In this document: positions 676 to 38,604 of the stretch, piece after piece
Position numbering within the stretch: the first letter of the stretch is position 1
Layout of the letters: each line of letters begins with the position of its first letter
From: a phage
Direction: 5' to 3' (one strand)
Sequence record: QB031380.1
DNA: 44,130 nucleotides
Notes under the pieces: model-generated
The model's database searches: none
The model's input: the letters and a program-made list of their open reading frames with translations, nothing else
What the model was told of the DNA's origin: nothing
Position numbers and translations under genes: made by a program

Positions 676-2106
676 ATGGCGATTAAACCAAAACGTAAAA
701 CGCAATCCGGTAGTAATACGGAACACTCATTACTTGGCCCATCCGGCGCTAAAAAATGGATGGGGTGTCCCGCCGCCCTGGTGGTAGAAAAAGATATCCC
801 GAACGTATCCGGGCAAGCGGCGATTAACGGTACGAGTATGCACACCGTATCGGAGGTGGTGCTAAACCGCATTATCGCCGGTGAGAAGAAAATAACCGCC
901 AAGACGTATAAAGGGTGCTACGTCGAGAACGAAGGCAAGGGTCCGGTAAAGGCCCACCCGAAAGCACCGAAAGGCGGCGTACTGGTCAACGACGATATGG
1001 TGAAACAGTGCGATGCATACATCGACCACTGGCGACCGCTCCTCGAAGTGGCGGAGTTTGTTCAGCTTGAGATGCGCGCCGATCTGACCCGCGTCCTTCA
1101 TTCAGGATTCGAGATCGACGGCAACAGGATTAAAACGTTCGGTACTGCCGATATGGTCATGGTCATGAAAAAGACCGACGGAACGTACATGCTGATTGTT
1201 GGCGACCTGAAGACCGGGCGGCATAAGGTCGAGGCGAAAGAAAACAAACAGCTTATGTTGTACGCGCTCGGACTGCTGCGCAAGCTGCAAACTATGTACG
1301 ACATTACGACCGTTCGCCTGGTTATCTTCCAGCCGTATTGCGGCGGGGCGTCGGAGTGGGATATTTCGGTAGAAGCGCTGGAGATATTCGCGAAGTTTGC
1401 ATCCAAGCGCGCTATTGCCGCACTGGAGGCGTATTCCCGAGGCAAGAAGGGACTAACCCGCGCCGACTTCCGGCCCAGCGTCGATGCGTGCCAGTGGTGC
1501 CGATTTGCGGATCAGTGTAGTGCCCGAGCTAAGGCCGCAATCGACACGATGACCCCACCGACGGCAACCGACGAAGACCTGGGCGACGACGTGAGTATTG
1601 CGACAGAGGAAGAATGCGCTAACCATGCCCGCAATATGGCCCGCGAAGCCCGGAAGGCGGCACGACGTGCGAAGCGTGGTAAGAAAGAAGCGGCCCCCGG
1701 CGCTATGAGCGCGGCGGAACTGCGCAAGGCGTATGAAGGTCTGGACGCAATGCGCCAGCACATCAAAGCTATCGAGTCCGCGGTATTCAAAGCGGTCATG
1801 GCGGGCGATGGCGAATCGTTGGGCCTTAAGATGGTTGCCGGTAAGGAAGGGATCCGTAAGTGGGCGGACGAGAGCGAAGTGATTGAAATCTTCACGAAGG
1901 CCCGGATTAAGCGCGATGTGATGTATAAAGAAACATTGCTCAGCCCGACCGATGCCGAGAAGGTGCTGAAGGACGAAAAACCGAAAGTGTGGGCGAAGCT
2001 GTGTGCTAAAATCACGCGCGCACCCGCTAAACCGGTGTTAGCACCAATCGACGACCCGCGCCCTGCGTGGTCGGAGGCCACTGACGAGGACTTAAGCAAT
2101 GAATAA
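676..2106 (+). CDS. PD-(D/E)XK nuclease, DUF2800-like (Cas4-like Cys cluster)
   Basis: 476 aa; C-terminal CQWCRFADQC cysteine motif; sits immediately upstream of a DUF2815-like gene and PolA. Confidence 0.65.
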   Translation: MAIKPKRKTQSGSNTEHSLLGPSGAKKWMGCPAALVVEKDIPNVSGQAAINGTSMHTVSEVVLNRIIAGEKKITAKTYKGCYVENEGKGPVKAHPKAPKGGVLVNDDMVKQCDAYIDHWRPLLEVAEFVQLEMRADLTRVLHSGFEIDGNRIKTFGTADMVMVMKKTDGTYMLIVGDLKTGRHKVEAKENKQLMLYALGLLRKLQTMYDITTVRLVIFQPYCGGASEWDISVEALEIFAKFASKRAIAALEAYSRGKKGLTRADFRPSVDACQWCRFADQCSARAKAAIDTMTPPTATDEDLGDDVSIATEEECANHARNMAREARKAARRAKRGKKEAAPGAMSAAELRKAYEGLDAMRQHIKAIESAVFKAVMAGDGESLGLKMVAGKEGIRKWADESEVIEIFTKARIKRDVMYKETLLSPTDAEKVLKDEKPKVWAKLCAKITRAPAKPVLAPIDDPRPAWSEATDEDLSNE

Positions 2107-11814: not shown

Positions 11815-11843
11815 AAAAAGGGGCCGTGCGGCCCCTTCGCATC
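11815..11843. terminator. bidirectional terminator between convergent genes
   Basis: AAAAAAA-GGGGCCgtgcGGCCCC-ttcgcat; the A-run gives a T-run on the minus strand. Confidence 0.6.
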
Positions 11844-13571: not shown

Positions 13572-13793
13572 ATGAAAACATTAATTGTGATTTGTGCGGT
13601 TCTTCTGTCCGGCTGCGCGGTAGAGCGTAACAACGGCGATTGCATTACGGTAGCTTACGGAAGCTGCATGTTGCGCTACGTTGACGGGCAAAAAGTCCCT
13701 GCGGGGGATGTGGATATGCGATTCACTGGTCTGTCTGCCGATAGTGACGGCAATTTTTCCGGCACTGTTTCAGTTAAATCACGGGAGTGGTAA
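13572..13793 (+). CDS. lipoprotein (signal peptide with lipobox LSGC)
   Basis: MKTLIVICAVLLSGCAV N-terminus; internal ATG of track ORF 13509..13793. Confidence 0.6.
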   Translation: MKTLIVICAVLLSGCAVERNNGDCITVAYGSCMLRYVDGQKVPAGDVDMRFTGLSADSDGNFSGTVSVKSREW

Positions 13794-21002: not shown

Positions 21003-23645
21003 TCATCGTTTGTAAAGTACTCCACCCGGTTTCGTCGCTTTCACGATCTCGGCCTTCACCGCCTCGGTGATTTGCTTGCCGAAAGCCTGCGCTGTGCGTG
21101 GGTCTGGGCTGCTCACACTGGTGTCTGTTTTACCGGTCCCCGTGTAAACGTTAGTCGTCACGATCATACCCCCGCCTGCGACAGAAGCGGCAACGCCCAG
21201 TTTCCCGTCTGGCCCGCGCTTCAGCGGCATGATGGCCTCGGGGCCAGCCTCACCCATCAATCCTGCGCCCTTAGCGAACGCCTGGACGCCATAACTGAAA
21301 AAGGTGGGCTGGCTTACCACTTTCCCCGAATAGGCCGCGAGATTGCCCCCTGCGTACGCTCCGCCGTCCGCATTCTTAGTGAGGCCCGAGAAGATAGCGC
21401 CGAACAATCCGTTTTTGCCGCCGTCGCCACCGAAAGCGCTAACGATGGACTTGAATGCCTGCGATGTAGCCAGCTTGATTAACTCGCTCAGGATGGATTT
21501 AACCATATCCTTTGCATTCAACTTGCCCGTCTCGAAAAACTCGTTCATTGTGTCCTGCATAGCGCTGAATGTGAATTTCGTGAGCGATGCCATCTGCGTA
21601 TATCCGTTACCCATTTCATCCACGCTATCCTTAAGACCGCGGCTGAATCCATCCCATAGCGAGGCGTTAGCACCGGTCTGCGCCTCCTGCACTTCCCGCA
21701 GCTTAGACACGGCCTTGTCGATAGCGGTATCACTCGCGCCGACACGCTGCAAGCGGTCTATTAGCTGCAATTCTTCGCGCAGGTTAGACGCTTCGCGCGT
21801 AGACAGTGCGTAGCCCGCCGCGGTGGCCTTTAGCTCGGCGTTCTGATTCTTGAGGAACGCGTCAACCTGGGATTGGGCTTTGATCTGCTTCTCTTTCGCA
21901 TCTAGTAATTTGGCTTCTTCGACAATCTGCTCGCGCACTTCCTTCACGCGCCCAAACTCCGCCATCTGCTGCTTTTCCGCTGCCGTTAGCGCCCTTTCTT
22001 TGCTTGCGGCGATTAACTGCTCATTATCCGCGATTAGCTTGTTTAAGGCCGCTTGAGCGCGTTGCGTGCGGGTCTGCGCAGATGCGTTGGCTTCGATCTG
22101 CTTGCCCGATTCGCGAAGCTGGGCCAGTTCGCTACGTGCAACTTCCAGCATTTTCATACCGGCATCCACGCGAACAGCCGCAGCCTTCTTCGGGGCCGGG
22201 TCTTTGTAGCGCTCGTTTACCTGCTTCACCGCCTCGGCTAGTTCTTTCTCATTAATCACACCGCGCTTGTTCAGCAAATTGAGGCGGGCGATCTCGTCGG
22301 CGCGCCTCTTCGCGTTGGTGGCGAATTCCTTCTCAAATGCAGCGCGGTCGCGGGCGGCGCGGTTGGCCTCCTCGTTCGCCTTCGCCGATTCGTCCGCGGA
22401 GCGGGCGTTGTCACGCTCCGCGCGGTTGCGCAGAGTTAGCGACGCCACTACTTTCTCCTGGGCGACCAGTTCGCTGTAAAGCATGTTAATACGCGCTTTC
22501 TGCGCTTCGGTCATCACTCCGCCGGCAGCGTTTACCGCTTTCATCTCGGCATAGTAAGCCGTGGTCATGCGCTGCAAGGATTCACGCGCTTTCATCTCGG
22601 ACTCATTGGAGGACTGCGCGCGCCCAACATCCAGGATGGCATCCCACATTGATTTGGCTGCCGATGTGACGACGTTCATAGATCGCTCAAGCGTACCCAT
22701 GTTCGCCTTGATATCGTTTGTCATAGTGGTGAACGACGCGGCGGCGGTTTTGTTAGCCAACGCAACCGCATCTGTCTCGCGCCCCATATCCACCAACGAC
22801 TGCACCTGCTGGATCTGCGCTTCGGTTACAACGTGATACTTATCTGCCAGTGCGCGCAAACCGCCTACTGGGTCGTTTGACAATTTCGCCACCGACGAGA
22901 CCACGTCCTCAATAGGCTGGCCCGACGTCTTTGCAAAGTCATTAACCACCTTAGCTAACCCGCCGAAGTCCGCACCCGCTTTCACACCCGCCGCCGCCAG
23001 TGACTGAATTGTGTCACGCGTCTTGCGGAATGATCCGCCCATCCGCTCGGCGTTCTCAGATAGCACCAGGATCTGGTTAGCGGTGAGGCCAGAAATATTA
23101 CCGGAAAGCGCCAGCGTCTTGTTAAGCGCCGCCACTTGGTTTTCCGCGCGGGACATAATCGACACGCCAACGCCCATCGTTGCCGTTAATGCAGCGATGC
23201 CGATCCCTAACGGGCCGAGGGTGCCGACGACATAACGCAGCGTATTCCCCAACCCGCCAAACGCCCCAGTAAGCTGTGGTAGCTGCTGAAGCATGACTCG
23301 ATGCACCGGCATACCCATCTCAAGCGTTACCGCGATATCCTGTAACTGGAATGCGGCGTTCCGCGATGCGAACCCCAGGTTCTTGGTCGACATGCCTAAT
23401 CGGCTGGCGAGTCGCTCCTGTTTCGTCATGCCGTCGGCGGCGCGCTGCGATTCAGTCGCTAACTTTTCCATTCCGCCCGCGGCGTCGCCAGTAACCTTTT
23501 TCGACTTGCCGAGTGTGTCGTTTAATTTCTTTACTTTCTGTTCTGTGTTCTCGGATTTCTGCGCAAATGTGTCCAGCACAGTATTCGCCGTTTTAATTTG
23601 CGCGACGTCCGCCTTGAGCGTGATGCCCGCTGCCTGATCTGCCAT
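21003..23645 (-). CDS. tail tape measure protein
   Basis: About 880 aa, coiled-coil rich with Gly-rich hydrophobic segment; start taken at ATG 23645 with AAGGGGG RBS. Confidence 0.85.
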   Translation of the reverse strand: MADQAAGITLKADVAQIKTANTVLDTFAQKSENTEQKVKKLNDTLGKSKKVTGDAAGGMEKLATESQRAADGMTKQERLASRLGMSTKNLGFASRNAAFQLQDIAVTLEMGMPVHRVMLQQLPQLTGAFGGLGNTLRYVVGTLGPLGIGIAALTATMGVGVSIMSRAENQVAALNKTLALSGNISGLTANQILVLSENAERMGGSFRKTRDTIQSLAAAGVKAGADFGGLAKVVNDFAKTSGQPIEDVVSSVAKLSNDPVGGLRALADKYHVVTEAQIQQVQSLVDMGRETDAVALANKTAAASFTTMTNDIKANMGTLERSMNVVTSAAKSMWDAILDVGRAQSSNESEMKARESLQRMTTAYYAEMKAVNAAGGVMTEAQKARINMLYSELVAQEKVVASLTLRNRAERDNARSADESAKANEEANRAARDRAAFEKEFATNAKRRADEIARLNLLNKRGVINEKELAEAVKQVNERYKDPAPKKAAAVRVDAGMKMLEVARSELAQLRESGKQIEANASAQTRTQRAQAALNKLIADNEQLIAASKERALTAAEKQQMAEFGRVKEVREQIVEEAKLLDAKEKQIKAQSQVDAFLKNQNAELKATAAGYALSTREASNLREELQLIDRLQRVGASDTAIDKAVSKLREVQEAQTGANASLWDGFSRGLKDSVDEMGNGYTQMASLTKFTFSAMQDTMNEFFETGKLNAKDMVKSILSELIKLATSQAFKSIVSAFGGDGGKNGLFGAIFSGLTKNADGGAYAGGNLAAYSGKVVSQPTFFSYGVQAFAKGAGLMGEAGPEAIMPLKRGPDGKLGVAASVAGGGMIVTTNVYTGTGKTDTSVSSPDPRTAQAFGKQITEAVKAEIVKATKPGGVLYKR

Positions 23646-27038: not shown

Positions 27039-27581
27039 TCACCCCCGGAATACATCAAAATTACCCGCTGCGTTGCCACCTGAGTCAATCCAGCGGCCCA
27101 GCAAGCCATCCCACCACGGGAACGAGACACCGCTACCAATCGTCGCAGGGTCATATTCCATCGTGATCGGGCCAACAGTTTCGCGGATAGTCTCCTTACC
27201 GCTGCCCACAGGAGAAATATCAACCTCGTCCGCCACCAACATCGCCAACCTGTAAACGGCTTGCTCAACGGCTACGGGGATTGATGCGAAGTCTACGATT
27301 TGCCCTGCAGGCACTACTGCCACAACTTCAGTGAGCGTGTCGCGCACCGGCTTACCGTCCGACTGGTAATTAAGGCGGGGCCATGCGTCGATGCCGGTCT
27401 GGTCTGCGGGTTCTCCGATCCAGTTGATGCCGTTAAGGAAGTCATTAGCGACGGTAAGGTGTCGCGTTGCATCGCTCAGCGTGACTTCAACGCCTCGCGC
27501 AGCGGCATAATCAACAAAGGTTTGCGGGTCGCCATACATTGTATTCGCTCCTATAAAAAAGGCGGGCATAAGCCCGCCCAT
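27039..27581 (-). CDS. head-tail adaptor protein (by position)
   Basis: About 165-180 aa ORF downstream of the major capsid gene; start uncertain. Confidence 0.35.
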   Translation of the reverse strand: MGGLMPAFFIGANTMYGDPQTFVDYAAARGVEVTLSDATRHLTVANDFLNGINWIGEPADQTGIDAWPRLNYQSDGKPVRDTLTEVVAVVPAGQIVDFASIPVAVEQAVYRLAMLVADEVDISPVGSGKETIRETVGPITMEYDPATIGSGVSFPWWDGLLGRWIDSGGNAAGNFDVFRG

Positions 27582-27597
27582 TTGGGATGTGCGCCCG

Positions 27598-28698
27598 TTA
27601 AGACGCGGTAGTCGCAGTCAGCGTAACCAGTACGCCCGCCGTTTCCTTGATGTGACGGGTAGGCACTGCCTGTGCGGCCTGGGTCTTACGACGGCCTTTA
27701 GTATCGCCATCACCCACCGCGCCAACATCTTGAACGGTTGCCGGTGCGTTGTCTACCTGGCCCTGGTCCAGTTCCCAGTTAGCTGAAGTGGTGATATCGT
27801 CCAGTTTGAACGAGCGAACGCCTTCGATTGGGGTGCGAGCGGACGCCTTCAGACGATAGCCTTTAACCGCCACGTTGAAGTCGAACTCGCCCTGCCACCA
27901 GCGCTCAATGTTCTCGTTACCACCTTTTTCCTGCGCCAGCATATCAAGGCCGTTGGTGGTAACTGCAACCGCGCCAGGGACCAGGCCCAGCATTTTACCC
28001 GCGCCCATTGCATCGGCAGCGGCATCGGAGATAATGAAACGGCGGCCCAGGCCATCGCCCATTACCTGCAGATCGCCGATCGCGAATACCTGCTCGGCAG
28101 ATGGAAGCGCCTGATAAGCGATGAAGTTTGCCCAGGTAACGCCATCCATAAACCAGGATTTAATTAAAGACGCCTGATCGCCAAACTTAGAAGCCGCCAG
28201 CGGGAAGTCTGCCAGGGTCGGGAAGGTACGACCGCCAACGCCATCGACGCGAGCAGGTTGGGTGTAGTTTGCCGCTGAGTTGCTTTCGATAGCCGCTTTA
28301 CCCGCGCCGATACCCGCTTTCAGATAGTGCAGCATAATCGCTTGAGTGGCCTGTGCCGCAATCTCAGCCGCAACGCTGTTAACGTTGGTTTCGATCTTGG
28401 CCATCATGGCCTTAGTGATTGCTACCGGACCAACTTTAGCGGAAAGGTTAACCGAGTTGGTCAGCATACGCGCCAGCACTTTTGCGGTCGCGGGAGTACC
28501 GACAGGGGCGTAGGCGTTACGGTCGGTAACGAGGTTGGCGATCAAGCCTACGGACATTTTTTCTACAACGTCCTTCAGCACTTCACCCGTGCCGAGAACA
28601 ACAGCTCCGTTAGCGGCGGCGTTGAACACGTTCAGGTTGTCGGGGATCATTTGCGTAACCGCGGTGACGAGTTTACGCTGGAACACTGTTAAAGACAT
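27598..28698 (-). CDS. major capsid protein
   Basis: 366 aa, downstream of scaffold and upstream of connector genes. Confidence 0.7.
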   Translation of the reverse strand: MSLTVFQRKLVTAVTQMIPDNLNVFNAAANGAVVLGTGEVLKDVVEKMSVGLIANLVTDRNAYAPVGTPATAKVLARMLTNSVNLSAKVGPVAITKAMMAKIETNVNSVAAEIAAQATQAIMLHYLKAGIGAGKAAIESNSAANYTQPARVDGVGGRTFPTLADFPLAASKFGDQASLIKSWFMDGVTWANFIAYQALPSAEQVFAIGDLQVMGDGLGRRFIISDAAADAMGAGKMLGLVPGAVAVTTNGLDMLAQEKGGNENIERWWQGEFDFNVAVKGYRLKASARTPIEGVRSFKLDDITTSANWELDQGQVDNAPATVQDVGAVGDGDTKGRRKTQAAQAVPTRHIKETAGVLVTLTATTAS

Positions 28699-28765
28699 AT
28701 TAGAATCCTTTGAGTTGTGAGCATTCGCTCAGTGTCGTTAATGTTACCTTAGATTTACGCGCTCG

Positions 28766-28790
28766 CAAAATCGCCCGCTTTCGCGGGCGA
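28766..28790 (-). terminator. hairpin (possible attenuator) between scaffold and capsid genes
   Basis: CGCCCGC-gaaa-GCGGGCG stem-loop followed by ATTTTG on the minus strand. Confidence 0.3.
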
Positions 28791-28795
28791 TCTGC

Positions 28796-29548
28796 TTACT
28801 CGTCGTCGCCCATTTTAGCGATGATATCCCCTGCCTGTTTCGTCAAGTCAGTGATACCGAAGCTGTGGCCCATAGTGATTTTCGACTTCACGTCTTCTAC
28901 GACCTGCGTCGGTTTGCTCGGCGCACCACCGGCGGGCGTGCCCGCCAGGACAGATGCAAAATCTGCGTTACTACGGAACTCTTTTTCAAGCTCTTCCATA
29001 GTCAGCGCGGACGGTTTGCCATCCTGCAAGACACGCACTTTCAAGCTGCCGTCTTCGCCGTCTTCCAGCGTGAGGCGGTCCATAACGTGACGTTGCATGA
29101 TGCCGGCATTCTTACCGAACAGCTTCGACGCCAGATCTTTGGCGGCGCTGCCGATGGTCAGGTCGTGGATCTGCTTGCGATAGGCTTCGATTTTCCCCGA
29201 TGTATCCGCTTCATGTTTTGCGAACTTATCTTTCCAGGACTTATCGATCGCTTCGAGGTCGCCATTTTTGCGCGCGGCGGCTTCCTCTTTCTCTTTCGCA
29301 AGTCGCTCAGCTTCGGCGCGGCGTTCGGCTTCTGCTTTCTTCTCGCTCACTAGCTTCGCGTTGTTGTCTTTCAGACCCTTGATCTCCGCCTGTACTTCTT
29401 CGGCGGTCATGAACGTGGATTTATACCCATCGCCATCGGCAACAAATAAAGCCTTCATGCCTTCCGGCAACGCGTCATATTCTGCTTTAGTAAGTTTCAT
29501 GCTATCCCCCTGGGATTGTGGCAAAGCGGGCCACCCGCTTGACTTCAC
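28796..29548 (-). CDS. scaffolding protein
   Basis: Charged, coiled-coil-like sequence directly upstream of the capsid gene; likely start MKLTKAEYD. Confidence 0.55.
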   Translation of the reverse strand: MKSSGWPALPQSQGDSMKLTKAEYDALPEGMKALFVADGDGYKSTFMTAEEVQAEIKGLKDNNAKLVSEKKAEAERRAEAERLAKEKEEAAARKNGDLEAIDKSWKDKFAKHEADTSGKIEAYRKQIHDLTIGSAAKDLASKLFGKNAGIMQRHVMDRLTLEDGEDGSLKVRVLQDGKPSALTMEELEKEFRSNADFASVLAGTPAGGAPSKPTQVVEDVKSKITMGHSFGITDLTKQAGDIIAKMGDDE

Positions 29549-29589
29549 GCCTTAATATTATCAGCGATAAAAATAATCGCAAAATTCGC

Positions 29590-29619
29590 TTGCACTGCGG
29601 GAATTGGTTGCGCTATATT
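29590..29619 (+). promoter_or_regulatory. sigma70-like promoter TTGCAC-N18-TATATT with GGTTGC elements
   Basis: Hexamers read directly; ATTGGTTGCGC in the spacer and GGTTGCAC just after the -10. Confidence 0.45.
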
Positions 29620-29648
29620 GGTTGCACACCAACAACGAGGACACAAAA

Positions 29649-30413
29649 ATGAGACTGACGAAAGATATTAAAAATCAGATTCTGGCTAACATCCTGCGCG
29701 ACCACGAAATCGCTACCGAAGCCAAACAAATCATGATGGACTCACGCGATCTGGCGTACGCAATCACGCTGGACTGTATGCCGGAAGGCATTCGCACGTT
29801 CGCAGCGCTCCGCGAGCGTATCGAGGCAATCAGCGATGACCCGTCGCAGATGTACGGCGTCAGCGTTTACACCAACAAGGCGACGTATAGTTATAACACC
29901 GACCGTCCGAAGGGCATCGGCAGCGTCTATAACGCCACCTTTGAAATCAACGCAGGTGGCAATGTTCGCACCTTGTCATTGAGCGGCGACGGTCGCCAAC
30001 ACCGCATACATCGCGGGTACTGGGAAGAGAAATATATGAATAAGCTATCCCCCGATCTCGGCGATATCGTTCCAGGGTTCGAGTCAGTTATGCTCGCGTC
30101 AGTGTGTGAAGTGGACGAGGACGGGAAAGCGTTGCCGATATATCTTCCACGCGGTCGCGTAGACTACCCGGAAGATCATGATTTCTGTAAGCGCCTGGAC
30201 CGCAACGACAAGGCCCGTCGCGAGTTGCGCGCGAAGTATGATGCGTTCAAACTCACCGTTACCGGTGTGCTGGACCTGCACAACACTGACAAGAAGCTGA
30301 TTAAGGCATGGCCTGAAGTTGAGCAATTCATCCCATACCCGGACAAGCCAAAATCCACGGCGGTGGCGCTGGATGTGAAAACGCTCAACGAGATTTGCGG
30401 CATTCCGCGCTAA
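29649..30413 (+). CDS. hypothetical protein on the opposite strand within the head operon, with own promoter and terminator
   Basis: ATG with GAGGA RBS; about 254 aa; flanked by a promoter and a terminator. Confidence 0.55.
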   Translation: MRLTKDIKNQILANILRDHEIATEAKQIMMDSRDLAYAITLDCMPEGIRTFAALRERIEAISDDPSQMYGVSVYTNKATYSYNTDRPKGIGSVYNATFEINAGGNVRTLSLSGDGRQHRIHRGYWEEKYMNKLSPDLGDIVPGFESVMLASVCEVDEDGKALPIYLPRGRVDYPEDHDFCKRLDRNDKARRELRAKYDAFKLTVTGVLDLHNTDKKLIKAWPEVEQFIPYPDKPKSTAVALDVKTLNEICGIPR

Positions 30414-30414
30414 C

Positions 30415-30445
30415 GAAAAAGGGGCCATTACGGCCCCTTAATTAT
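30415..30445. terminator. bidirectional terminator
   Basis: AAAAA-GGGGCCattacGGCCCC-TTAATTATTT; the Rz1 stop codon lies within the hairpin. Confidence 0.6.
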
Positions 30446-30658
30446 TTGCTGCAACTCCAACACCTGCGCCCTCAGCTTCGCGCCGCATTCCATATTTTTC
30501 ACGTCAATCATCAAATCTTCGTCGGGGTCCGCAGACGGGTTATCGAACTTGCACGGCGGTCGCAGCGCCGACTCCGTTAGCGGCATCAACGGCACGTTGC
30601 TTGATCCGCACGCGCTCAGCATCAAAACTACAATCAGGGCGGTTAGGGCGCGTAACAT
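30428..30658 (-). CDS. outer-membrane spanin lipoprotein (Rz1-like)
   Basis: Signal peptide plus lipobox LSACG, Pro-rich mature part; AAGAGG RBS inside the Rz-like gene; starts in another frame within it. Confidence 0.6.
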   Translation of the reverse strand: MLRALTALIVVLMLSACGSSNVPLMPLTESALRPPCKFDNPSADPDEDLMIDVKNMECGAKLRAQVLELQQIIKGP

Positions 30659-30899
30659 ATTTTACAACCTCTTTCGTGATAGTCCGGTATTCTACGTCGC
30701 GGGCTTGTTCGGCCTGCACGGAGCGCTCAACAACTTTAGTTTGCTGCCGTTGGGCTTTGGCTTGCGCTTCTTGCGCCGCCTCCGCCACTACGCCAGCGCG
30801 ATAGGAGTCACCTAGCCAGAATCCTACCGCCAGACCGATAACCAGTCCAATAGCCGCATACTTAATCACGCCATAACCCCCGGTTTTTAAGCTGTGCAA
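30540..30899 (-). CDS. inner-membrane spanin (Rz-like)
   Basis: N-terminal transmembrane segment, charged coiled-coil periplasmic part; overlaps the Rz1-like ORF; start may be GTG 30869. Confidence 0.5.
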   Translation of the reverse strand: MHSLKTGGYGVIKYAAIGLVIGLAVGFWLGDSYRAGVVAEAAQEAQAKAQRQQTKVVERSVQAEQARDVEYRTITKEVVKYVTRPNRPDCSFDAERVRIKQRAVDAANGVGAATAVQVR

Positions 30900-31965
30900 T
30901 AGTCATCAGTTCGCCAGAATCGGTGAACATCTTCGGCACTTTCACGCCGCGCATAATCTGGTCGGCGCGTTGCACTCCATATAATTCTTCCAGGATATGG
31001 CGCGGCTGGCGCTGCACCCACGAGAAGAAATCAGTCTGCGCGTCAACCTGCTCACTCAGCAATCTGCCCGCGTCAGACTTCAGTGCCGGACGCTTACCAC
31101 TGGGCCAATCTTCCATGCCTTTAACCTTCCACGTCTCCGTAGACCGGCAACAATAATGCAACTTGCCCGGACCAGCGCCATATTGTGACCCAGCCACCAT
31201 TTTCCCGCCGCGCTTTCCTTTGGTGTCGGGAGTAACATCAACCGGATAAAACAGGCGATCGCGTAGCTGGCACATGGGAGAAGTATGCGTGTCCAATGTA
31301 GATAACCATTGGCGACCTTCGAGAATATCGTCATTTGCTTTTACCATTAGTTCGCGGGCGGTAGCCGCATAGTGGTTGACTGCGGACTTAACAACGCTCG
31401 AGATAGCTTGCGCACTACGACCACCTAGCGCGCGCCTCACGTCCGCGATAATTTCCATCGTTGGCTTGCCCTGGATGAATCCCGCTCGCACCTGATTACC
31501 GATCTGCGTCCTGGTCCACTCAGAAAGTGAGTCAGGCCATTGCATCATCGTATTACCTTGGAACGGGTTTTTCATAGCCGTCGCTGCGATCTGCGCACCG
31601 GTCACTACGCCAACCACCTCAACCGCAGGTACGGCGACCACCGGCTGGATCGCTGCCGTTAATGTGTCGGCGAGATAATCGGCCTCGGTGTCGGCAAACT
31701 CCTGAAGGCTTTCAGCCAACGCCTTAAACTCGGTGCGCAATTCCGTCTTAACGGTCTTGTCGACTTGCGTTAGCAGGGTGGAAAGTGCCTTGTTATTCAT
31801 TGACGATTTACCATCAAGCAACTCAGTCAGCTTTCCCAGTAATGTAGGCCGGAACTTCTCCCACATGGACAGCACCCTTCGCGCCTGGTCATTACTCAGG
31901 CGCTGGGTGAAGATGTGTCGGCGAATCATTCGATCCGCCATATATTGATTAATTGTCTTCGCCAT
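30862..31965 (-). CDS. minor head / head morphogenesis protein (Mu F-like)
   Basis: WLSTLDTHTSPMCQLRDRLFY matches the conserved LD..TS..C motif; downstream of portal. Confidence 0.75.
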   Translation of the reverse strand: MAKTINQYMADRMIRRHIFTQRLSNDQARRVLSMWEKFRPTLLGKLTELLDGKSSMNNKALSTLLTQVDKTVKTELRTEFKALAESLQEFADTEADYLADTLTAAIQPVVAVPAVEVVGVVTGAQIAATAMKNPFQGNTMMQWPDSLSEWTRTQIGNQVRAGFIQGKPTMEIIADVRRALGGRSAQAISSVVKSAVNHYAATARELMVKANDDILEGRQWLSTLDTHTSPMCQLRDRLFYPVDVTPDTKGKRGGKMVAGSQYGAGPGKLHYCCRSTETWKVKGMEDWPSGKRPALKSDAGRLLSEQVDAQTDFFSWVQRQPRHILEELYGVQRADQIMRGVKVPKMFTDSGELMTIAQLKNRGLWRD

Positions 31966-33469
31966 TGTCCGCTACCTTGTCCTGGTCTTCTTCGGTAGAT
32001 TCTACCGCATCCGGGGACATTTGAGGCAATGGATTCTGATTTCGCAATTCGTCTTCCACCTGCTCAACGGTTTGCGAGTCATCAATGACGCCCTGGGCCA
32101 TCATCCACTTAATAAAGTCCGCCAGACGGACCGTACCGGTCTGCACACCCGCCATCATTGCGGTCATAAGCTGTGCGTCAACCGTGATTTCGGTGTAGAA
32201 CTTATTCAGCGTTACGCGTTGATCTGCGGTGTCGCCAGTGAACAGCTTGACGATTTGCAGCGCACGGTTGAAAGCCTTCTCAACATTACCGGCAATCAGT
32301 GACAGGATACTGTTATCAGTCTGCGCATCGTAGGCCGCTTCAGTTGCCGTCTTAGGTGCGGTCCCCTTTTCGACCAGGGCCGCGCCTAGTTTAGCCATTT
32401 GCAATTCTCGGCGTTCACACAGTGCTACCGATAGGTTTCGTTCTTCGGCCTGAAGCAGTTTAGCGTCCATGTTCTGGCCCAGGATAACGCCCTTAGTCGC
32501 CCCGAGCGCGATGCCGCCCTTCAGGTTTTTATCCGCCCATGATTGGGTCAGACCGGTCGTAATGAGTGTAGGCTGGCCCACGATGTGTGCAATCTCTGCG
32601 ACGTCGGCTTCGGCGTTGTAGTGCTTAATGTTGATGGACGCGATATCCGCCAGCGGGGCGGCGTCCGGTGTCGCGTTGTTATCAACCGCGCCACACCAAC
32701 AGAAAGGCAGTTGCGTAAGCGCGTTACCGGCAGCATCCACCAGTGGTACAAGGTCGGTGCGGGTGAATCCCCGCGGCAAGTCCATTTGCACCTCGGACGT
32801 GTCCGCGTTGAAAAACCAGCGGCGGGCGTGTGCCGCACCGTTAATCATGCGAAGCTCAGTCCAGATCGTTACTTCGTGGTTTGCGAAGTCGTCCGGGTCT
32901 TCGGTGCTGATTTCGTCCGTCTCCTTCAGCACGATTAGCGTGTCGACGCCGTGGGTCTGCCGCCAGTTGATGATCTGTTCAGCCGTATACAGGCGGATAA
33001 GCGGGCGGTGTGTCGCCATTTCAGCGGCTGTCTGCGGCACTACGTTACCCAGTTCATCAAAGTTAGCCTGGCGGTCGTAGTCCACCATAAAGCCAGCGCG
33101 GCCCGATTGCAGCACTTCCGACATAGCGCCGCGCAGGAGTTGCGCCAGCGGCATCCCGCTGCCGTCTACGTCATCGATCAGGTCAGCCATTGCCCCGGAA
33201 AGGTCCATACTCACCGGTTTGGCGAAGGCGACACCTAACAGCGCGTTAAGCGTGCGTGCGGTGGCGTTCAGGAAGACAGCACGTTGCTTGTATGCCTTAT
33301 AGCGCGCACGCGATTTCGGGTCGGTGGTGTCGCCGCTGGCTGGGTGTGGCAGGTACAATGGCCCGCACGCCTTCACGGCGCGCTCCCCTGCTACACAATC
33401 TCGAATCATTTTCCACTCTGGCGCGATGCGCGCATAGAGCGGGTGCTGGTTGTCAACGTTAACGGTCAT
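31949..33469 (-). CDS. portal protein
   Basis: 506 aa between terminase large subunit and the Mu F-like gene. Confidence 0.7.
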   Translation of the reverse strand: MTVNVDNQHPLYARIAPEWKMIRDCVAGERAVKACGPLYLPHPASGDTTDPKSRARYKAYKQRAVFLNATARTLNALLGVAFAKPVSMDLSGAMADLIDDVDGSGMPLAQLLRGAMSEVLQSGRAGFMVDYDRQANFDELGNVVPQTAAEMATHRPLIRLYTAEQIINWRQTHGVDTLIVLKETDEISTEDPDDFANHEVTIWTELRMINGAAHARRWFFNADTSEVQMDLPRGFTRTDLVPLVDAAGNALTQLPFCWCGAVDNNATPDAAPLADIASINIKHYNAEADVAEIAHIVGQPTLITTGLTQSWADKNLKGGIALGATKGVILGQNMDAKLLQAEERNLSVALCERRELQMAKLGAALVEKGTAPKTATEAAYDAQTDNSILSLIAGNVEKAFNRALQIVKLFTGDTADQRVTLNKFYTEITVDAQLMTAMMAGVQTGTVRLADFIKWMMAQGVIDDSQTVEQVEDELRNQNPLPQMSPDAVESTEEDQDKVADNGEDN

Positions 33470-33480
33470 GGTCGGTTTCC

Positions 33481-34866
33481 TTAGTAGAAGTCTACGTTTG
33501 GAACAACGGCGATCGGACGAATCACAGGGAACAAGTGCGCAATAGGGTAGCCCGCTGCGTCATTCATGTGGTCCACACCGGCAGTTTTATCCGGCTCGCC
33601 TTTCTTCAGGTCGTACACCTGCTGTTCCAGACATTTCGCTAGTGTAGGGCATTTATCCAGGTTGACAAAATACTGGCGCACGCCCTTCGAGTTGCGCATC
33701 ATCGTATTCATCGCGATCAATCGGTCTTTAACAGGTGGGTTAACGCTGTCATATTCCACCTCAAAGCCTGCGTCTTCCAGTTGCGCGATATCGGACGACG
33801 ATGCGTTGACCGTTTTGCGGGATTTGCCGCTGCTATCAGGGTAAACTACGACCTTACCGGCGGCACAATGTTCCGGGTAGCGCTCCTCGATCGCCTCAAT
33901 CATAGCCGGGGTATCAAACAGGTCCACAAATTCGTCCACCGCGTGAATCTCGTCGCGGAACTCCTTGTTCTCGGTGACTCGCTGCCGTCTGACGTACACA
34001 ACCGCCGCCATTTTCGTGACGTTAAAATCCATACCGATAATCAGCGTGTCTTCCGGCTGCACTTCTTCGGTGCTTGCGTTCTCCTCACGGTTAAACATCT
34101 TGTATACCGCGCCCGACGTAAGGTTGACAAACAGGCCGTTCAGGTACGCGTCGATCAGGTTAGCTGGGTACTGACTACGCAGCGTGTCGATAAAGTCTGC
34201 CGGTAAATGGTGGTTGTCCGTGGTCTTCGCCCGGATCAAGCGTTTCTGGTTGTCTTTCTCCACCTCGAAAATTTGGTACATCGCCCGGTAGCCTTCCGGG
34301 GTGGACACGATGACGAACTGGCGGACAAAGCCAGCACGCAGACGACCGAGCAATTTGTGATATGCCGCCATTGCGACGTCTTGCTTCGTGGTGTCGAACT
34401 CGTCGGCAACAATCCACGCGGCGTTAACCCCGATTAGGCGGGTGTAGTTCTCCATTGATTCACAGATAACGCGGGTCCATTTGCCTTTCACCAGCACGTT
34501 ATAGATCTTGTCCTGCTTATTGAACTTCCACCGGAATCCAGCCTCATCAAACGCCTTTTCCAATTCCGGGTACATGATTTTAACCAGGAGGGGAATAGTC
34601 GGTTCTGTAACGATGCCGTCGTGACCGGGGTTCAGGGTTAAAAGCTGGATGACCTTACGCGCAGCGACCCACGACTTTCCACCACCGAAGCCGGAACACA
34701 GGCCGAGGATTTTAGTCTTCGTGTCACGCAGTAGTTCGACCTGGTGCGGAAGGCAATCAGGCTGGTAAAGGCGGACGGCCTGCGCAACGCGTGTTGGGCG
34801 CGGTGGTCGGTTGCGCTTTGCGATCGCGCGTTCCAGTGCGCGGTGTTCTGCCGCATAGTTACGCAT
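33481..34866 (-). CDS. terminase large subunit
   Basis: Walker A GFGGGKS, Walker B IVADEFD, C-terminal nuclease-like acidic motifs. Confidence 0.85.
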   Translation of the reverse strand: MRNYAAEHRALERAIAKRNRPPRPTRVAQAVRLYQPDCLPHQVELLRDTKTKILGLCSGFGGGKSWVAARKVIQLLTLNPGHDGIVTEPTIPLLVKIMYPELEKAFDEAGFRWKFNKQDKIYNVLVKGKWTRVICESMENYTRLIGVNAAWIVADEFDTTKQDVAMAAYHKLLGRLRAGFVRQFVIVSTPEGYRAMYQIFEVEKDNQKRLIRAKTTDNHHLPADFIDTLRSQYPANLIDAYLNGLFVNLTSGAVYKMFNREENASTEEVQPEDTLIIGMDFNVTKMAAVVYVRRQRVTENKEFRDEIHAVDEFVDLFDTPAMIEAIEERYPEHCAAGKVVVYPDSSGKSRKTVNASSSDIAQLEDAGFEVEYDSVNPPVKDRLIAMNTMMRNSKGVRQYFVNLDKCPTLAKCLEQQVYDLKKGEPDKTAGVDHMNDAAGYPIAHLFPVIRPIAVVPNVDFY

Positions 34867-35516
34867 TAATCACCCTGACCTTTGCCGGTGGGTTCCACAA
34901 CGACGTCGCCGTTATCATCTTCGTCGTCATCCAGCGGTACATCGTCGCGGACGCCGTGGTTTGCTTTAAGCAGGAATGTAGCGAAGCCCGCCGCGATGGT
35001 CACGCCGCCAGCTTCCATCAGGAAAGTTTTCTGCAACTCCATAGCATCCGCCATCGCCTCGGCGAACTCCTCATGTGCACGCGCCCAGCGATACAGGCAA
35101 GCTACGCCCACACCGATTTCCGCGGCAAATCGACCGAAGGTTGGCATTTTGTTGCGGGGGATTACTTGCGCAGCGCCTTTATCGGAGTAGTTGACCTGCC
35201 AGGCGTCGGCGTCGGCAAAATAGCGGCGAAGCTGGTCGCAGTAAACGGATCGGTAGTCAGTAGGGCGTCCACATTTGCCGCCTTTACGGCGCTTTCCGTA
35301 CTCGATTTCAGGTCCGAGATTGGTGTGCTCGGTTTGCTCGCCTGGTTTACGGCGCGGGGTTACCGCCACTCGTCCGTCCAGTTTGGCGCGTCGGCCCTTA
35401 ACTTTGATTTCTGCCATGATATAAGCCCTTTTGTTCATATGCGCCGACCATCGGCAACATAGGAGACGGCCCTGCCATCTAAGGGGGATTATAACAGGCA
35501 CAAAAAAGCCCACCAA
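34866..35516 (-). CDS. terminase small subunit
   Basis: Directly upstream of and overlapping the large subunit; likely true start at MAEIKVKG. Confidence 0.55.
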   Translation of the reverse strand: MVGFFVPVIIPLRWQGRLLCCRWSAHMNKRAYIMAEIKVKGRRAKLDGRVAVTPRRKPGEQTEHTNLGPEIEYGKRRKGGKCGRPTDYRSVYCDQLRRYFADADAWQVNYSDKGAAQVIPRNKMPTFGRFAAEIGVGVACLYRWARAHEEFAEAMADAMELQKTFLMEAGGVTIAAGFATFLLKANHGVRDDVPLDDDEDDNGDVVVEPTGKGQGD

Positions 35517-35534
35517 ATCGGCAGGCTGGGAGGA

Positions 35535-35747
35535 TTAAACGGCGCGACCGTAGTATCGGGTTAACATGCTTTCTACTTCGCGTATGGCGCCTTCTGTGTA
35601 GCGTATTTGAGATAGTATCTCGATCCGCTCACTGATAGACATGCCTATTGCCGCTGCCGTTCGTTCGAATCGGCGCAAGCCTTCGAGTTGTTTGCGTAGC
35701 TCTTTCAGGCGGGTGGCCTGCGTGCTCATGAATACTTGTCTGATCAT
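35535..35747 (-). CDS. hypothetical protein
   Basis: 70 aa ORF between the phosphoesterase and small terminase genes. Confidence 0.4.
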   Translation of the reverse strand: MIRQVFMSTQATRLKELRKQLEGLRRFERTAAAIGMSISERIEILSQIRYTEGAIREVESMLTRYYGRAV

Positions 35748-36886
35748 TTCAACATTTCCGGGCTAATGGTTAAGCGCGCTACTTCGCCGTAGTTGGCGCT
35801 GTAGGTAATGACGTTGGCACTGCGACCGCTCATCCAGCCGCCGCGGCTGGCGTAGGCGTCTTTCGCTGCGAGCGTCCGGTGCTGTTCAACAATCATGTTG
35901 CGAGACTCGACAATCTTCTGGTGGTGCAAATGACCTACGTGCGCGTAGCTGTATTCGCTCGACCCGAACGCCTGTCTGAATTTAGCGATCATAACCTGCT
36001 CGATAGCATCGAATCGCGCTTTGTGCCCGTGGTGGAAAAACAGCGTGGTCTTACCGTGCTGCACCATTTTGTAGACGTCCGGGGACGTATCCACATCGAC
36101 GCGCGGCTCGTTCTCGTACAGCGTGTTGAACATCTCAGCAAGCCAAATCATGCCCGACTCGTCATGATTACCCTGGACGATTAGCAGTTTGACTTTATGG
36201 TGTTTTTGCAGCGCCAGGTCTACGACGTTGCGCACCATGCGTATCATATAGCGGACCAACTTCTGGTATCGAGTGTCGGCATCCAGTACGTGACCGCTGG
36301 CTGGTGTGACGGCATCAAGGCTATCAAAGTGCGCCATATCGCCGAGGATATTGATAACGGCAGTGCCTGCGTCCGGTGCGCGTGCGAAGGCTTCGACAAA
36401 CCAGCGGTAGAACAGGTCTTCGGCGATCGCCATATCCCAGTCTTCGCCAGTCTCCTCACCCCATGCCAGCATACCCAAGTGGAAGTCGGACACCGTGTAC
36501 AGGTTGAGCAAGTCGAGCGCCTGGATCGGGACTGGCGGGGCGTTTACTGGCGCTGCCGGTGTAATTTCGCTGTTCATACCCTCGACAACAGCGCGCATTG
36601 CTTCGAGTTGGCGCTCCTTGTCCTGCTCAGTGATGACCCACGACATGACCTCCTCGCCATTGCCGCGCACCAGGGCAGACACGCGCTTAACCCCAAACCC
36701 ATCTGCAACGCGCTTACGGATCACTGCATCATTGCCGTGACCAATCCCCTTTTTCGACAGGCGGGCTTTGCGCATATAGACATTGCGCAGGGCAATCCCG
36801 TATTTCTTCGCAATCTCTTTAACCGTAGTCCCTGCCTGAATTTCTGCGATCAATTGCTCATCGGTGATTTTAGTTTGCGGGTGCAT
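35744..36886 (-). CDS. calcineurin-like metallophosphoesterase with N-terminal HTH-like domain
   Basis: GDMAHFD, GNHDE and HHGH motifs; N-terminal TVKEIAKKYGIALRNVYMRKARL. Confidence 0.55.
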   Translation of the reverse strand: MHPQTKITDEQLIAEIQAGTTVKEIAKKYGIALRNVYMRKARLSKKGIGHGNDAVIRKRVADGFGVKRVSALVRGNGEEVMSWVITEQDKERQLEAMRAVVEGMNSEITPAAPVNAPPVPIQALDLLNLYTVSDFHLGMLAWGEETGEDWDMAIAEDLFYRWFVEAFARAPDAGTAVINILGDMAHFDSLDAVTPASGHVLDADTRYQKLVRYMIRMVRNVVDLALQKHHKVKLLIVQGNHDESGMIWLAEMFNTLYENEPRVDVDTSPDVYKMVQHGKTTLFFHHGHKARFDAIEQVMIAKFRQAFGSSEYSYAHVGHLHHQKIVESRNMIVEQHRTLAAKDAYASRGGWMSGRSANVITYSANYGEVARLTISPEMLK

Positions 36887-36947
36887 ATTTAATTAATTCC
36901 TGATTAGTGGACCGTGGACAATATACCACGGTCCATATGGTGGCGGG

Positions 36948-37028
36948 CTATATCAATTCGCAAATAACCATGCCGATGAAAGCCGCGGTGGTCCAGATTG
37001 CTAATACCCAAATATCGTTACGTGTCAT
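36948..37028 (-). CDS. putative 26 aa hydrophobic peptide
   Basis: ATG preceded by AAGAGGAG RBS; peptide MTRNDIWVLAIWTTAAFIGMVICELI. Confidence 0.25.
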   Translation of the reverse strand: MTRNDIWVLAIWTTAAFIGMVICELI

Positions 37029-37091
37029 CTTGATTACTCCTCTTATTGGTTGGTTGCAGTATGGCCCCTATGTTGGTTGCAAGTCAAGCAA

Positions 37092-37125
37092 TAAAAAGCC
37101 CGGTATTATCCGGGCTTGTTGGTTT
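37092..37125. terminator. bidirectional terminator
   Basis: AAAAA-GCCCGG-tattat-CCGGGC-TTGTTGGTTT. Confidence 0.55.
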
Positions 37126-37525
37126 ACGCGGCTGCCGTTACTGTGAAGCCTGCGTCAGCCTGCACCCTACTGCCGTCGGACGCCACCCAAACGATGCGGA
37201 CGTTACCCGCCGCTTTCGCTGTGATTTCGCCGGTAGTCGGATTGATTGAGGCGCGGTTAGGGTTAGCCGACACCCACGATCCGGCCTTGTTGGTAGCGTC
37301 GGATGGCAGGATGGCAACCGTCGCGGTGGCTGTCTCTCCGACGGCGGCGGTAACTGGATCGATGGTAACGGTCGCACTTGTCACCGGCTTACCTTCAGGC
37401 ACGGCCTTGTCGAAGACGCCTGAGATATTCATATCGCCAGCCAGGATGCGGCGCGCTTCTGGGTTCTGCACTGCGGGCAGTGTCTTGATAATGCGTTCTT
37501 TACGTCGCAAGATCGAATCTAACAT
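37124..37525 (-). CDS. Ig-like (Big_2-type) domain protein
   Basis: 133 aa; Thr/Ala/Val-rich beta-strand pattern typical of bacterial Ig-like domains. Confidence 0.5.
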   Translation of the reverse strand: MLDSILRRKERIIKTLPAVQNPEARRILAGDMNISGVFDKAVPEGKPVTSATVTIDPVTAAVGETATATVAILPSDATNKAGSWVSANPNRASINPTTGEITAKAAGNVRIVWVASDGSRVQADAGFTVTAAA

Positions 37526-37541
37526 ATTGTGTCACCTCGTA

Positions 37542-38033
37542 TTATGCAGCGTTACGACCGATTCGCTCGGCAACGTCCCACTGCTTACCATCAAACAACG
37601 CCTGTCTGCCGATTGCACGGCGTACCAGACCCTTTAACACTTCACCGCCTTGCTTGCGGAACTGCGGCAGAGTAGCACGGACCTTCGCCCAGTCGCCCAG
37701 TCGCACCGCGTCATCGAAATCATTCGCGACGTCATCCGGTACGATAGGACCAGGACCGGCGTTGATTACCAGGTCCACCAGCGCGTCGAATTGCGCCTGG
37801 TTAATGCTTGGATGTGCGTATTTGTTCACCCAGTCCTCGGCATACGCCACGTCGCGCTTTAGCAGTTCCAGCGCTTCCGCGCGGGTAATGCTTCGAGGCG
37901 GATTAGTGCCCGTATGACCATAGCCCCAGGTGTACAGGCCGCGGGCCTGCTCTTTCTTGGTTGCGAAATACGGCACCGGGCTGAAAGCCTCCCATGCTGC
38001 CGTAAATCTTAGACCGTTGTCACTGAATCGCAT
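37542..38033 (-). CDS. endolysin (phage lysozyme, GH24-like)
   Basis: E...Y.W.YGHTG and QAQFDALVDLVINAG pattern typical of phage lysozymes; preceded by two membrane-protein genes. Confidence 0.8.
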   Translation of the reverse strand: MRFSDNGLRFTAAWEAFSPVPYFATKKEQARGLYTWGYGHTGTNPPRSITRAEALELLKRDVAYAEDWVNKYAHPSINQAQFDALVDLVINAGPGPIVPDDVANDFDDAVRLGDWAKVRATLPQFRKQGGEVLKGLVRRAIGRQALFDGKQWDVAERIGRNAA

Positions 38034-38265
38034 GTTTTACCCCATTCAAAACAGCATTACGCAGTGTGCGCAATGCAAACAGCCATATTAACGCGGTCCA
38101 GGTGGTATCAGATACGTCTCCTGTTTGCAACAGTCCGATAATACAGACCATTGCCGTTAACAGATACAGCACCCGGCCGAAAATGCCATCCCGGACGGAC
38201 GGCGCATACACGTTAAACAGGGACGAAGCCCCGATGATAACAAACAACAGGACGGAGATAATCAT
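38020..38265 (-). CDS. holin-like membrane protein
   Basis: 81 aa with two hydrophobic helices, directly upstream of the endolysin. Confidence 0.6.
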   Translation of the reverse strand: MIISVLLFVIIGASSLFNVYAPSVRDGIFGRVLYLLTAMVCIIGLLQTGDVSDTTWTALIWLFALRTLRNAVLNGVKHAIQ

Positions 38266-38552
38266 TTTGCACCCCCCGGAAGTCGGAACGACGCAATAGT
38301 CTCCCTGATCCGGTCGGCGATTGGCATCCAGAAGATCGCAGTTACGAAGCCCAAACCGGCGACAGTGCGCTCACCCGACAAACCAGCCCACTCGGCAATA
38401 GCCGGTGCGCCAAATATGGCACACAGGAAGCCAACTACAACATACAAAACGAAGTTTAGCGGCCCCTTCGTAGCCTCACTATGAATGCGTGCGCCTACGA
38501 AGCCACCCGCCAGACATGCCAGGGCGAATAGCCACTCGTTTAGCTTATCCAT
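38262..38552 (-). CDS. holin/antiholin-like membrane protein
   Basis: 96 aa with several hydrophobic helices, in the lysis cassette. Confidence 0.5.
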   Translation of the reverse strand: MDKLNEWLFALACLAGGFVGARIHSEATKGPLNFVLYVVVGFLCAIFGAPAIAEWAGLSGERTVAGLGFVTAIFWMPIADRIRETIASFRLPGGAK

Positions 38553-38604
38553 AAAAAAGTCCCAGTAAGTTTTAGCTCACTGGGACTATATCACGCTTGC
38601 ATAA

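Follow-up and report, generated by a model that had tools for sequence, protein, structure and literature searches.

Organization of the Locus

Two small overlapping genes lie on the minus strand of the analyzed phage DNA (sequence record QB031380.1), downstream of a MuF-like head morphogenesis gene. The whole stretch of 44,130 bases is referred to below as the window, and the coordinates of the features discussed are given in Table 1. The first gene encodes a putative membrane-anchored protein and the second a putative lipoprotein, and we designate them the predicted i-spanin and o-spanin genes. An earlier note on this DNA had placed such a pair at 30428–30899, between the Mu F-like and scaffold genes. 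Both open reading frames (ORFs) were found in that interval and the position was correct; the i-spanin start had been set too far upstream, and a plus-strand Nmad5 ORF on the scaffold side of the pair had been omitted.

Table 1. Positions of the predicted spanin genes, their signals and the neighboring and lysis genes in the window.
Feature	Position	Strand	Description
Nmad5 ORF	29604..30413	+	269 codons; between the predicted spanin genes and the scaffold gene
Terminator-like hairpin	30419..30439	both	Bidirectional, common to the convergent o-spanin and Nmad5 genes; −21.1 kcal/mol, z = −2.45
Predicted o-spanin gene	30428..30658	-	76 aa, lipoprotein precursor; ORF, lipobox, PHROG matches, annotation of relatives
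Predicted i-spanin gene	30540..30869	-	GTG start, 109 aa; ORF and translation, phrog_2536 match, start as annotated in relatives
Predicted o-spanin signal peptide and lipobox	30608..30658	-	MLRALTALIVVLM-LSAC; sequence, six-frame lipobox scan
Putative o-spanin ribosome-binding site	30668..30673	-	AAGAGG, 9 nt before the ATG, inside i-spanin codons T-K-E-V-V-K-Y
Predicted i-spanin membrane anchor	30804..30860	-	Codons 4–22 (YAAIGLVIGLAVGFWLGDS region); hydropathy, exact boundaries estimated
MuF-like head morphogenesis gene	30862..31965	-	367 aa; phrog_241 1.3e-116
Putative i-spanin ribosome-binding site	30877..30881	-	GGGGG, 7 nt before the GTG, within the 3′ end of the MuF-like gene
Endolysin, lysozyme family	37542..38033	-	PF00959 6.4e-21; phrog_7 endolysin 1.4e-35
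Second holin-like membrane protein	38020..38265	-	phrog_2508 holin 1.9e-27
Holin, first gene of the lysis cassette	38262..38552	-	phrog_2359 1.2e-31

The window is a Dhillonvirus genome of the HK578/JL1/SSL-2009a/EP23 group, with a DNA identity of 95–96% to several deposited phages, and its length approximates that of one genome of this genus. The 2.5-kb region around the gene pair matched 158 phage records, the best of which were 95–96% identical over the full length. Nearly all of the matched records were Dhillonvirus phages infecting Escherichia or Shigella, e.g., SSL-2009a, EP23, YD-2008.s and B2. Scans for Rfam families and tRNA genes over the full window returned no matches. The comparison set consisted of the homologous stretch in eight more Dhillonviruses, of which the most divergent was 78% identical in DNA, and tallies are given over nine Dhillonviruses.

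The longest ORF in the i-spanin frame spans 30540..30899, with a TTG as its first codon. Relatives (SSL-2009a, TheodorHerzl and others) have their start annotated at the GTG equivalent to that at 30869, which is kept in all nine Dhillonviruses compared and is likely the actual start codon, rather than the TTG at 30899. The GGGGG preceding it was present in eight of nine relatives, with AGGGG in the ninth, and a GGGGG Shine–Dalgarno sequence is also recorded for the i-spanins of HK578, JL1 and EP23 (Kongari 2018, Table S1, PMC6139136). The stop codon of the MuF-like gene and the GTG overlap by 8 nt (GTGATTAA), an overlap conserved in 9/9 Dhillonviruses; this arrangement suggests co-transcription of the two genes and, possibly, translational coupling.

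The o-spanin ORF starts 211 nt downstream of the i-spanin start, i.e., in the +1 frame. Its first 119 nt coincide with the end of the i-spanin gene, an overlap in another frame that the earlier note had also described, and it continues 112 nt beyond the i-spanin stop. Such an architecture is termed ‘overlapped’ and is among the arrangements by which spanin pairs are recognized (o-spanin gene embedded in, overlapping or directly following that of the i-spanin, and in the +1 frame if overlapping). The AAGAGG sequence correctly pointed out earlier as the o-spanin gene’s own ribosome-binding site was identical, together with the ATG, in 9/9 relatives.

The hairpin at the end of the pair reads AAGGGGCC-GTAAT-GGCCCCTT and is followed by TTTCG. 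The o-spanin TAA stop codon (30428–30430) falls within its loop, in agreement with the original description of a stop inside a terminator hairpin. Both the hairpin and the stop codon in the loop (TAA or TGA) are kept in nine relatives.

Predicted Topology of the Two Proteins

Residues 1–17 of the i-spanin, with the hydrophobic N-terminus IKYAAIGLVIGLAVGFWLG, form its most hydrophobic 17-residue stretch (Kyte–Doolittle mean 2.09), which bears out the membrane anchor attributed to this protein. Lys3 lies on the cytoplasmic side of the predicted anchor. The approximately 87 residues beyond the anchor are polar or charged (27 D/E/K/R) and rich in Ala, Val, Gln and Arg, and they include the only Cys of the protein, Cys80, in the predicted periplasmic domain. 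The inferred topology, with a single N-terminal transmembrane segment and a mostly periplasmic bulk, is the one by which i-spanins are defined (Summer 2007; Kongari 2018). Across the Dhillonviruses, the i-spanin gene has either 109 or 102 codons.

The description of the i-spanin as a coiled-coil protein is weakly supported. In a simple heptad scan, the a and d positions were occupied mainly by Ala, and no coiled-coil register of the Leu/Ile type was detected. The published Pepcoil table (PMC6139136) lists a predicted coiled coil for the SSL-2009a i-spanin and none for the near-identical proteins of JL1, HK578 and EP23. A single-sequence AlphaFold2 model of low confidence (pLDDT 60, pTM 0.19) contained helices at residues 5–72 and 84–97, a weak hint at a rod-like helical protein interrupted at the RPNRPDC segment.

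The o-spanin N-terminus, MLRALTALIVVLMLSAC, carries the lipobox LSAC, in which Cys17 is encoded by 30608–30610 and is followed by Gly. Gly at the +2 position predicts sorting to the outer membrane. The o-spanin thus combines a lipobox Cys with the absence of an inner-membrane retention signal at +2, as spanin lipoproteins are expected to do, and its lipidation is predicted. Over nine relatives, the lipobox is conserved as LSAC, LTAC or MSAC. With this lipoprotein signal in the o-spanin and an N-terminal helix in the i-spanin, the lipoprotein and transmembrane predictions that the earlier note had suggested as a check came out in its favor.

The predicted mature o-spanin has 60 residues. It contains six Pro in its first 30 residues and 7/60 overall, so that the term ‘Pro-rich’ fits the N-terminal half of the mature form and not the whole. 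Besides Cys17, it has two further Cys, Cys36 and Cys58. All three o-spanin Cys are conserved in nine relatives, all four Cys of the pair are conserved in the Dhillonviruses, and the o-spanin Cys are kept also in phages SE2, ZCEC5 and 2b LV-2017. Spanins typically have at least one periplasmic Cys for intermolecular disulfides; here, Cys80 of the i-spanin and Cys36 and Cys58 of the o-spanin would occupy such positions.

Both ORFs were present in every Dhillonvirus compared, and the o-spanin ORF had 76 codons in each. Substitutions in the two non-overlapping parts were concentrated at third codon positions. In the part encoding only the i-spanin, 63% of third codon positions varied across the nine Dhillonviruses versus 17% of second positions; in the part encoding only the o-spanin, the corresponding values were 61% and 14%. 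This bias indicates purifying selection on the proteins encoded in both frames.

Family Membership and Existing Annotation

Comparison with the PHROG database assigned both proteins to spanin families. The i-spanin matched phrog_2536 (1.2e-36) and two further PHROGs, all annotated as ‘Rz-like spanin’, and the o-spanin matched phrog_5672 (2.4e-26) and phrog_1267 (9.5e-12), both with the same annotation. A Pfam scan of both proteins at E ≤ 0.1 matched no family, including those of lambda Rz (Phage_lysis) and Rz1. The designation ‘Rz/Rz1-like’ therefore stands as a functional and topological analogy and not as membership of the lambda Rz/Rz1 sequence families.

In the spanin census of Kongari et al. 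2018 (PMC6139136), EP23, HK578, JL1, SSL-2009a and EK99P-1 are entered with both components in the ‘Jersey’ family of overlapped two-component spanins, which has 27 members. For JL1, Table S1 of that study gives an i-spanin that differs from that of the window by one residue (tblastn identity 98.2%), and the SE2 i-spanin is 58% identical across residues 64–107. The o-spanin was similar to its counterparts in SE2 (8.7e-17) and ZCEC5 (4.5e-13). Both components thus show the significant similarity that defines this family.

The pair is already known: apart from its place in the census, it is annotated in RefSeq and in the BASEL collection and is common to hundreds of deposited phages. With the i-spanin as query, tblastn returned 660 phage records. 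RefSeq annotates both SSL-2009a genes as Rz-like spanins, and in the BASEL phages TheodorHerzl and GeorgBuechner the genes at the same position are annotated as i-spanin and o-spanin, the BASEL annotators having relied on the spanin database of Kongari et al. A Dhillonvirus paper (PMC12677095) counts an Rz-like spanin located seven genes from the endolysin in the lysis system. Our literature search turned up no ‘Jersey’-family spanin that had been examined by genetics or biochemistry; the S10 lysis paper contains no spanin work.

Genome Context

The minus-strand gene order is lysis genes, Ig-domain protein, exonuclease, small and large terminase subunits, portal, MuF-like protein, i-spanin and o-spanin. 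The pair is therefore not adjacent to the holin and endolysin genes, in contrast to the canonical holin–endolysin–spanin cluster. The separation from the cassette at 37542–38552 is real; the distance to the endolysin gene is about 6.7 kb, against the approximately 7 kb given in the earlier note, and the intervening exonuclease, terminase, portal and MuF-like genes are accompanied by at least two terminator-like hairpins. Intergenic terminator-like hairpins on the minus strand, identified as consensus matches only, are located at 38587–38558, 37117–37096, 35527–35507, 30439–30419 and 27579–27560. Provided that these hairpins function, the predicted spanin genes would be the last genes of a terminase–portal–MuF unit.

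A second spanin or a u-spanin beside the endolysin gene was considered and rejected: the gene downstream of the endolysin encodes a 133-aa Ig-domain protein, and the six-frame lipobox scan was empty there. Over the full 44 kb, the six-frame scan for lipoprotein signals yielded only one other credible lipoprotein ORF, located beside the tail-fibre gene (13572..13793). The best match of its product was a PHROG of unknown function, and a weak match to the Cor family covered the first 30 residues only (5.7e-4). The counterpart of this gene in phage EE09 is annotated as superinfection exclusion.

Homologous Pairs and Alternative Functions

The two small proteins, encoded in the head module after the MuF-like gene, might alternatively be head-assembly or virion components. 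Dhillonvirus, Jerseyvirus and Kagunavirus all keep them between the MuF-like and scaffold genes, and the MuF stop codon is overlapped by the i-spanin start. Jerseyvirus SE2 and Kagunavirus ZCEC5 likewise have the homologous pair between head morphogenesis/decoration genes and the scaffold gene, which indicates that the placement in the head module is old and common rather than peculiar to this genome. However, capsid proteins do not have a membrane anchor or a lipoprotein signal, and homologues in Klebsiella phages are found in canonical holin–lysozyme–spanin cassettes, a long way from the head genes. The Klebsiella phages 2b LV-2017, ST13-OXA48phi12.5 and BUCT541 have a homologous i-spanin gene immediately after the holin and lysozyme genes. 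The 3′ end of this gene is overlapped in 2b LV-2017 by a +1-frame lipoprotein ORF, so far without annotation, that encodes an o-spanin homologue (tblastn 6.7e-8) in which the two periplasmic Cys are kept. We consider this lysis-cassette placement the strongest indirect support for a spanin function of the pair.

The one existing Dhillonvirus proteome, that of phage EE09 (PMC10673088), bears on the same question. Its CDS34 was detected by mass spectrometry in cell-free lysate with one peptide and 12% coverage, and was guessed by the authors to be structural. In the deposited genome, we found CDS34 to be a 102-aa homologue of the i-spanin, with the o-spanin ORF present and unannotated. The lysate had been subjected to 0.2 µm filtration only and also contained endolysin, terminase and phosphoesterase (PMC10673088); the supplement of the paper has no entry on CDS32–34. 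In so crude a lysate, the detection of CDS34 demonstrates translation of the i-spanin and not virion membership. The earlier note had held that finding the proteins as virion components would refute the spanin assignment, and the EE09 data do not amount to such a finding. A structural role for the two proteins is, in our estimate, extremely unlikely.

Small phage outer-membrane lipoproteins often exclude superinfection or block receptors, as do T5 Llp and the Cor proteins of phi80 and HK022. The lipoprotein of the window, itself without a Pfam match, could accordingly be a Cor/Llp-like protein for superinfection exclusion or receptor blocking, unrelated to the membrane protein encoded upstream. 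Against this, the lipoprotein ORF invariably accompanies, in the +1 frame, a member of one and the same membrane-protein family, including in lysis cassettes; its matches are to spanin PHROGs only; and a separate lipoprotein gene exists beside the tail-fibre gene. We rate this alternative as even less probable than a structural role.

Least probable of all is that the second ORF is an untranslated chance frame: a GC-rich phage genome often has chance overlapping ORFs of 70–80 codons, the region itself is covered by several antisense ORFs of similar length and the second ORF is unannotated in many deposited genomes, but the third-position bias of its non-overlapping part, the retention of its length, ribosome-binding site, ATG, lipobox and Cys down to the most divergent genome of the comparison set, its strong PHROG match and the protein homologues at 30–48% identity in Jerseyvirus, Kagunavirus and Klebsiella phages all argue against it.

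The topology signals, the +1 overlap, the purifying selection, the PHROG matches, the Klebsiella cassettes, the RefSeq and BASEL annotations and the census agree with the i-spanin/o-spanin pair claimed in the earlier note. We estimate the probability that the two genes encode the i- and o-spanin lysis proteins of outer-membrane disruption at about 0.9, the functional assignment being based on homology, topology and gene context.

Comparison with Known Spanins

With other members of the ‘Jersey’ family (Jersey, SETP3, SE2, K1G, HK578, JL1, EP23, SSL-2009a, EK99P-1), the pair shares the overlapped +1-frame architecture and the position after the MuF-like gene. With the Dhillonviruses of this family, it also shares the lengths of 109 and 76 aa and the GGGGG Shine–Dalgarno sequence, and nothing of substance differs. 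In some Dhillonviruses, unlike in the window, the i-spanin has 102 aa and another C-terminal tail, and the overlap is 98 nt. The spanins of Jerseyvirus and Kagunavirus are longer (127–128 and 87 aa), and their genes lack the start–stop overlap with the preceding gene.

Lambda Rz has 153 aa, compared with 109 aa for the i-spanin of the window, and mature Rz1 has 40 aa, compared with 60 aa for the mature o-spanin. As far as predicted for the window, the two systems are alike in combining a type II inner-membrane protein with a +1-frame outer-membrane lipoprotein, in having periplasmic Cys and in late expression, and the mechanism is presumed to be the same (PMC6139136). They differ in that lambda Rz1 is wholly embedded in Rz, whereas the o-spanin gene of the window passes the i-spanin stop. 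Moreover, there is no Pfam-level similarity between them, the pair of the window is not adjacent to the holin and endolysin genes and its coiled-coil signal is weak.

LysB and LysC of phage P2 are encoded inside the P2 lysis cluster. They are the prototype of the ‘overlapped’ architecture seen in the window and are placed in a different spanin family (PMC6139136). The genes for PseT.3 and PseT.2 of phage T4 resemble the present pair in lying away from the holin and endolysin genes (PMC6139136); they are the precedent for unlinked spanin genes, and proximity to the lysis cassette is not a defining property of spanins. However, the T4 spanin genes are ‘separated’ and non-overlapping and no T4 lysis genes are clustered, whereas the holins and endolysin of the window form a cassette.

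Proposed Mechanism

Judging from the anatomy of the locus, the pair would be transcribed late, as the final two genes of the TerS–TerL–portal–MuF unit. Translation of the i-spanin would begin at the GTG overlapping the MuF stop and that of the o-spanin at its own AAGAGG/ATG within the i-spanin gene, and transcription would stop at the hairpin with the o-spanin stop codon in its loop.

The subsequent steps are proposed by analogy with lambda Rz/Rz1 and other spanins, according to the standard spanin model established for Rz/Rz1 and summarized in PMC6139136. The i-spanin would be anchored in the inner membrane and expose its C-terminal domain to the periplasm, while the o-spanin would be lipidated at Cys17 and sorted to the outer membrane’s inner leaflet. 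The periplasmic domains would bind each other and bridge the envelope through the peptidoglycan mesh, probably as disulfide-linked homodimers, given one periplasmic Cys in the i-spanin and two in the o-spanin. The holins (38020..38552) would release the endolysin, whose removal of the peptidoglycan would free the spanin complexes. Once mobile, these would fuse the inner membrane with the outer one and so complete lysis. As spanins accumulate without harm and stay inert until the cell wall is degraded, the distance of their genes from the holin–endolysin cassette is immaterial to this mechanism.

It is also conceivable, though very unlikely, that the placement at the end of the unit, which is conserved across Dhillonvirus and Guernseyvirinae, is itself functional, with head-gene expression setting the dosage or timing of the spanins, or with the i-spanin having a second membrane role in head assembly or DNA packaging. 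A second role of this kind would fit the detection of the i-spanin homologue in the lysate proteome.

Implications

In many deposited Dhillonvirus and Jerseyvirus genomes, one or both genes of the pair are labeled ‘hypothetical’, or the o-spanin gene is shortened or missing. The pair is a clean case of spanin genes located outside the lysis cassette; a search restricted to the surroundings of the endolysin gene would count such phages, wrongly, as lacking spanins. A firm spanin call would be useful to annotators and to engineers of these phages, which serve in therapy and in studies of defense systems.

Organization of the late region

Strong terminator-like hairpins occur in intergenic positions of the late region (table). 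They would split it into units for lysis and the Ig-domain protein, for exonuclease, for packaging, portal, MuF-like head protein and spanins, and for scaffold and capsid. Only the intergenic placement of the hairpins is suggestive, because terminator-like sites in the late region were, in all, no more numerous than the shuffled expectation.

Features of the window and related genomes.
Feature	Genome	Coordinates	Strand	Details
Intergenic terminator-like hairpins	Window (27560..38587)	38587-38558, 37117-37096, 35527-35507, 30439-30419, 27579-27560	-	Strong
Ig-domain protein, 133 aa	Window	37124..37525	-	Big_2
Nmad5 protein gene	Window	29604..30413	+	PF18757, 9.8e-59
o-spanin ribosome site and ATG	Window	30656..30679	-	AAGAGGTTGTAAAATATG; within i-spanin codons T-K-E-V-V-K-Y-V
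Tail-fibre gene	Window	11842..13518		
Lipoprotein ORF, 73 aa	Window	13572..13793	+	MKTLIVICAVLLSGC; lipoprotein signal, good RBS
o-spanin gene	SE2	about 4026..4271		
o-spanin gene	2b LV-2017	about 4035..4280		
o-spanin gene	EE09	21643..21873		
'Amidase' gene	Jerseyvirus SE2	1127..1777	opposite	

The gene for the Ig-domain protein directly follows that for the endolysin and is itself followed by the hairpin at 37096-37117. By position it corresponds to CDS40 (137 aa) of EE09, located after the lysin gene; the authors of that study detected the CDS40 product in lysate, at 28% coverage, as well as in infected cells, and considered it lysis-related (PMC10673088). The PHROG matches, by contrast, suggest an Ig protein with a structural or decoration role.

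The Nmad5 gene, with a probable ATG start near 29646, lies on the opposite strand between the spanins and the scaffold gene; it is convergent with the spanin genes, and the terminator hairpin is common to both. The content of this slot differs among relatives: SSL-2009a has an additional orf8 of ~330 nt, absent from the window, TheodorHerzl and WF5505 carry a 'DNA polymerase III beta'-like gene, and Opt212 has two small ORFs. Dhillonviruses have been reported to escape the Tmn defence system through single nmad5 missense mutations (PMC11846954).

In SE2, the 'amidase' gene is flanked by genes for the portal and for head morphogenesis, and the spanin genes are a few genes away. In this phage group it is a further lysis-type gene within the head module.

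Lipoprotein and spanin genes

Besides the o-spanin gene, the window contains a single credible lipoprotein ORF, which adjoins the tail-fibre gene; after it comes a 324-aa 'membrane protein' moron (phrog_1265). The strong match of the lipoprotein ORF was phrog_4281, of unknown function; the match to the Cor superinfection-exclusion family was weak (5.7e-4) and covered residues 1-30 only. The counterpart in EE09 carries the annotation 'superinfection exclusion protein'.

Public records often annotate the o-spanin gene of this (Jersey) spanin family incorrectly. The entries for SE2 and the Kagunavirus ZCEC5 give a truncated version of 47 aa that lacks the signal peptide, and no o-spanin is annotated in Klebsiella phage 2b LV-2017, PS2, WF5505 or EE09, the locus tags of the latter skipping number 33. 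The ZCEC5 o-spanin starts with GTG, at a site other than that of the Dhillonvirus ATG. Among the Dhillonvirus, Jerseyvirus, Kagunavirus and Klebsiella phage sequences compared, the best-conserved i-spanin motif was I/V-T-R/K-E/D-V-V/I-K-Y-V/I. Since the o-spanin RBS and ATG of the window fall within this motif, the segment is doubly constrained in Dhillonviruses, as protein and as translation signal.
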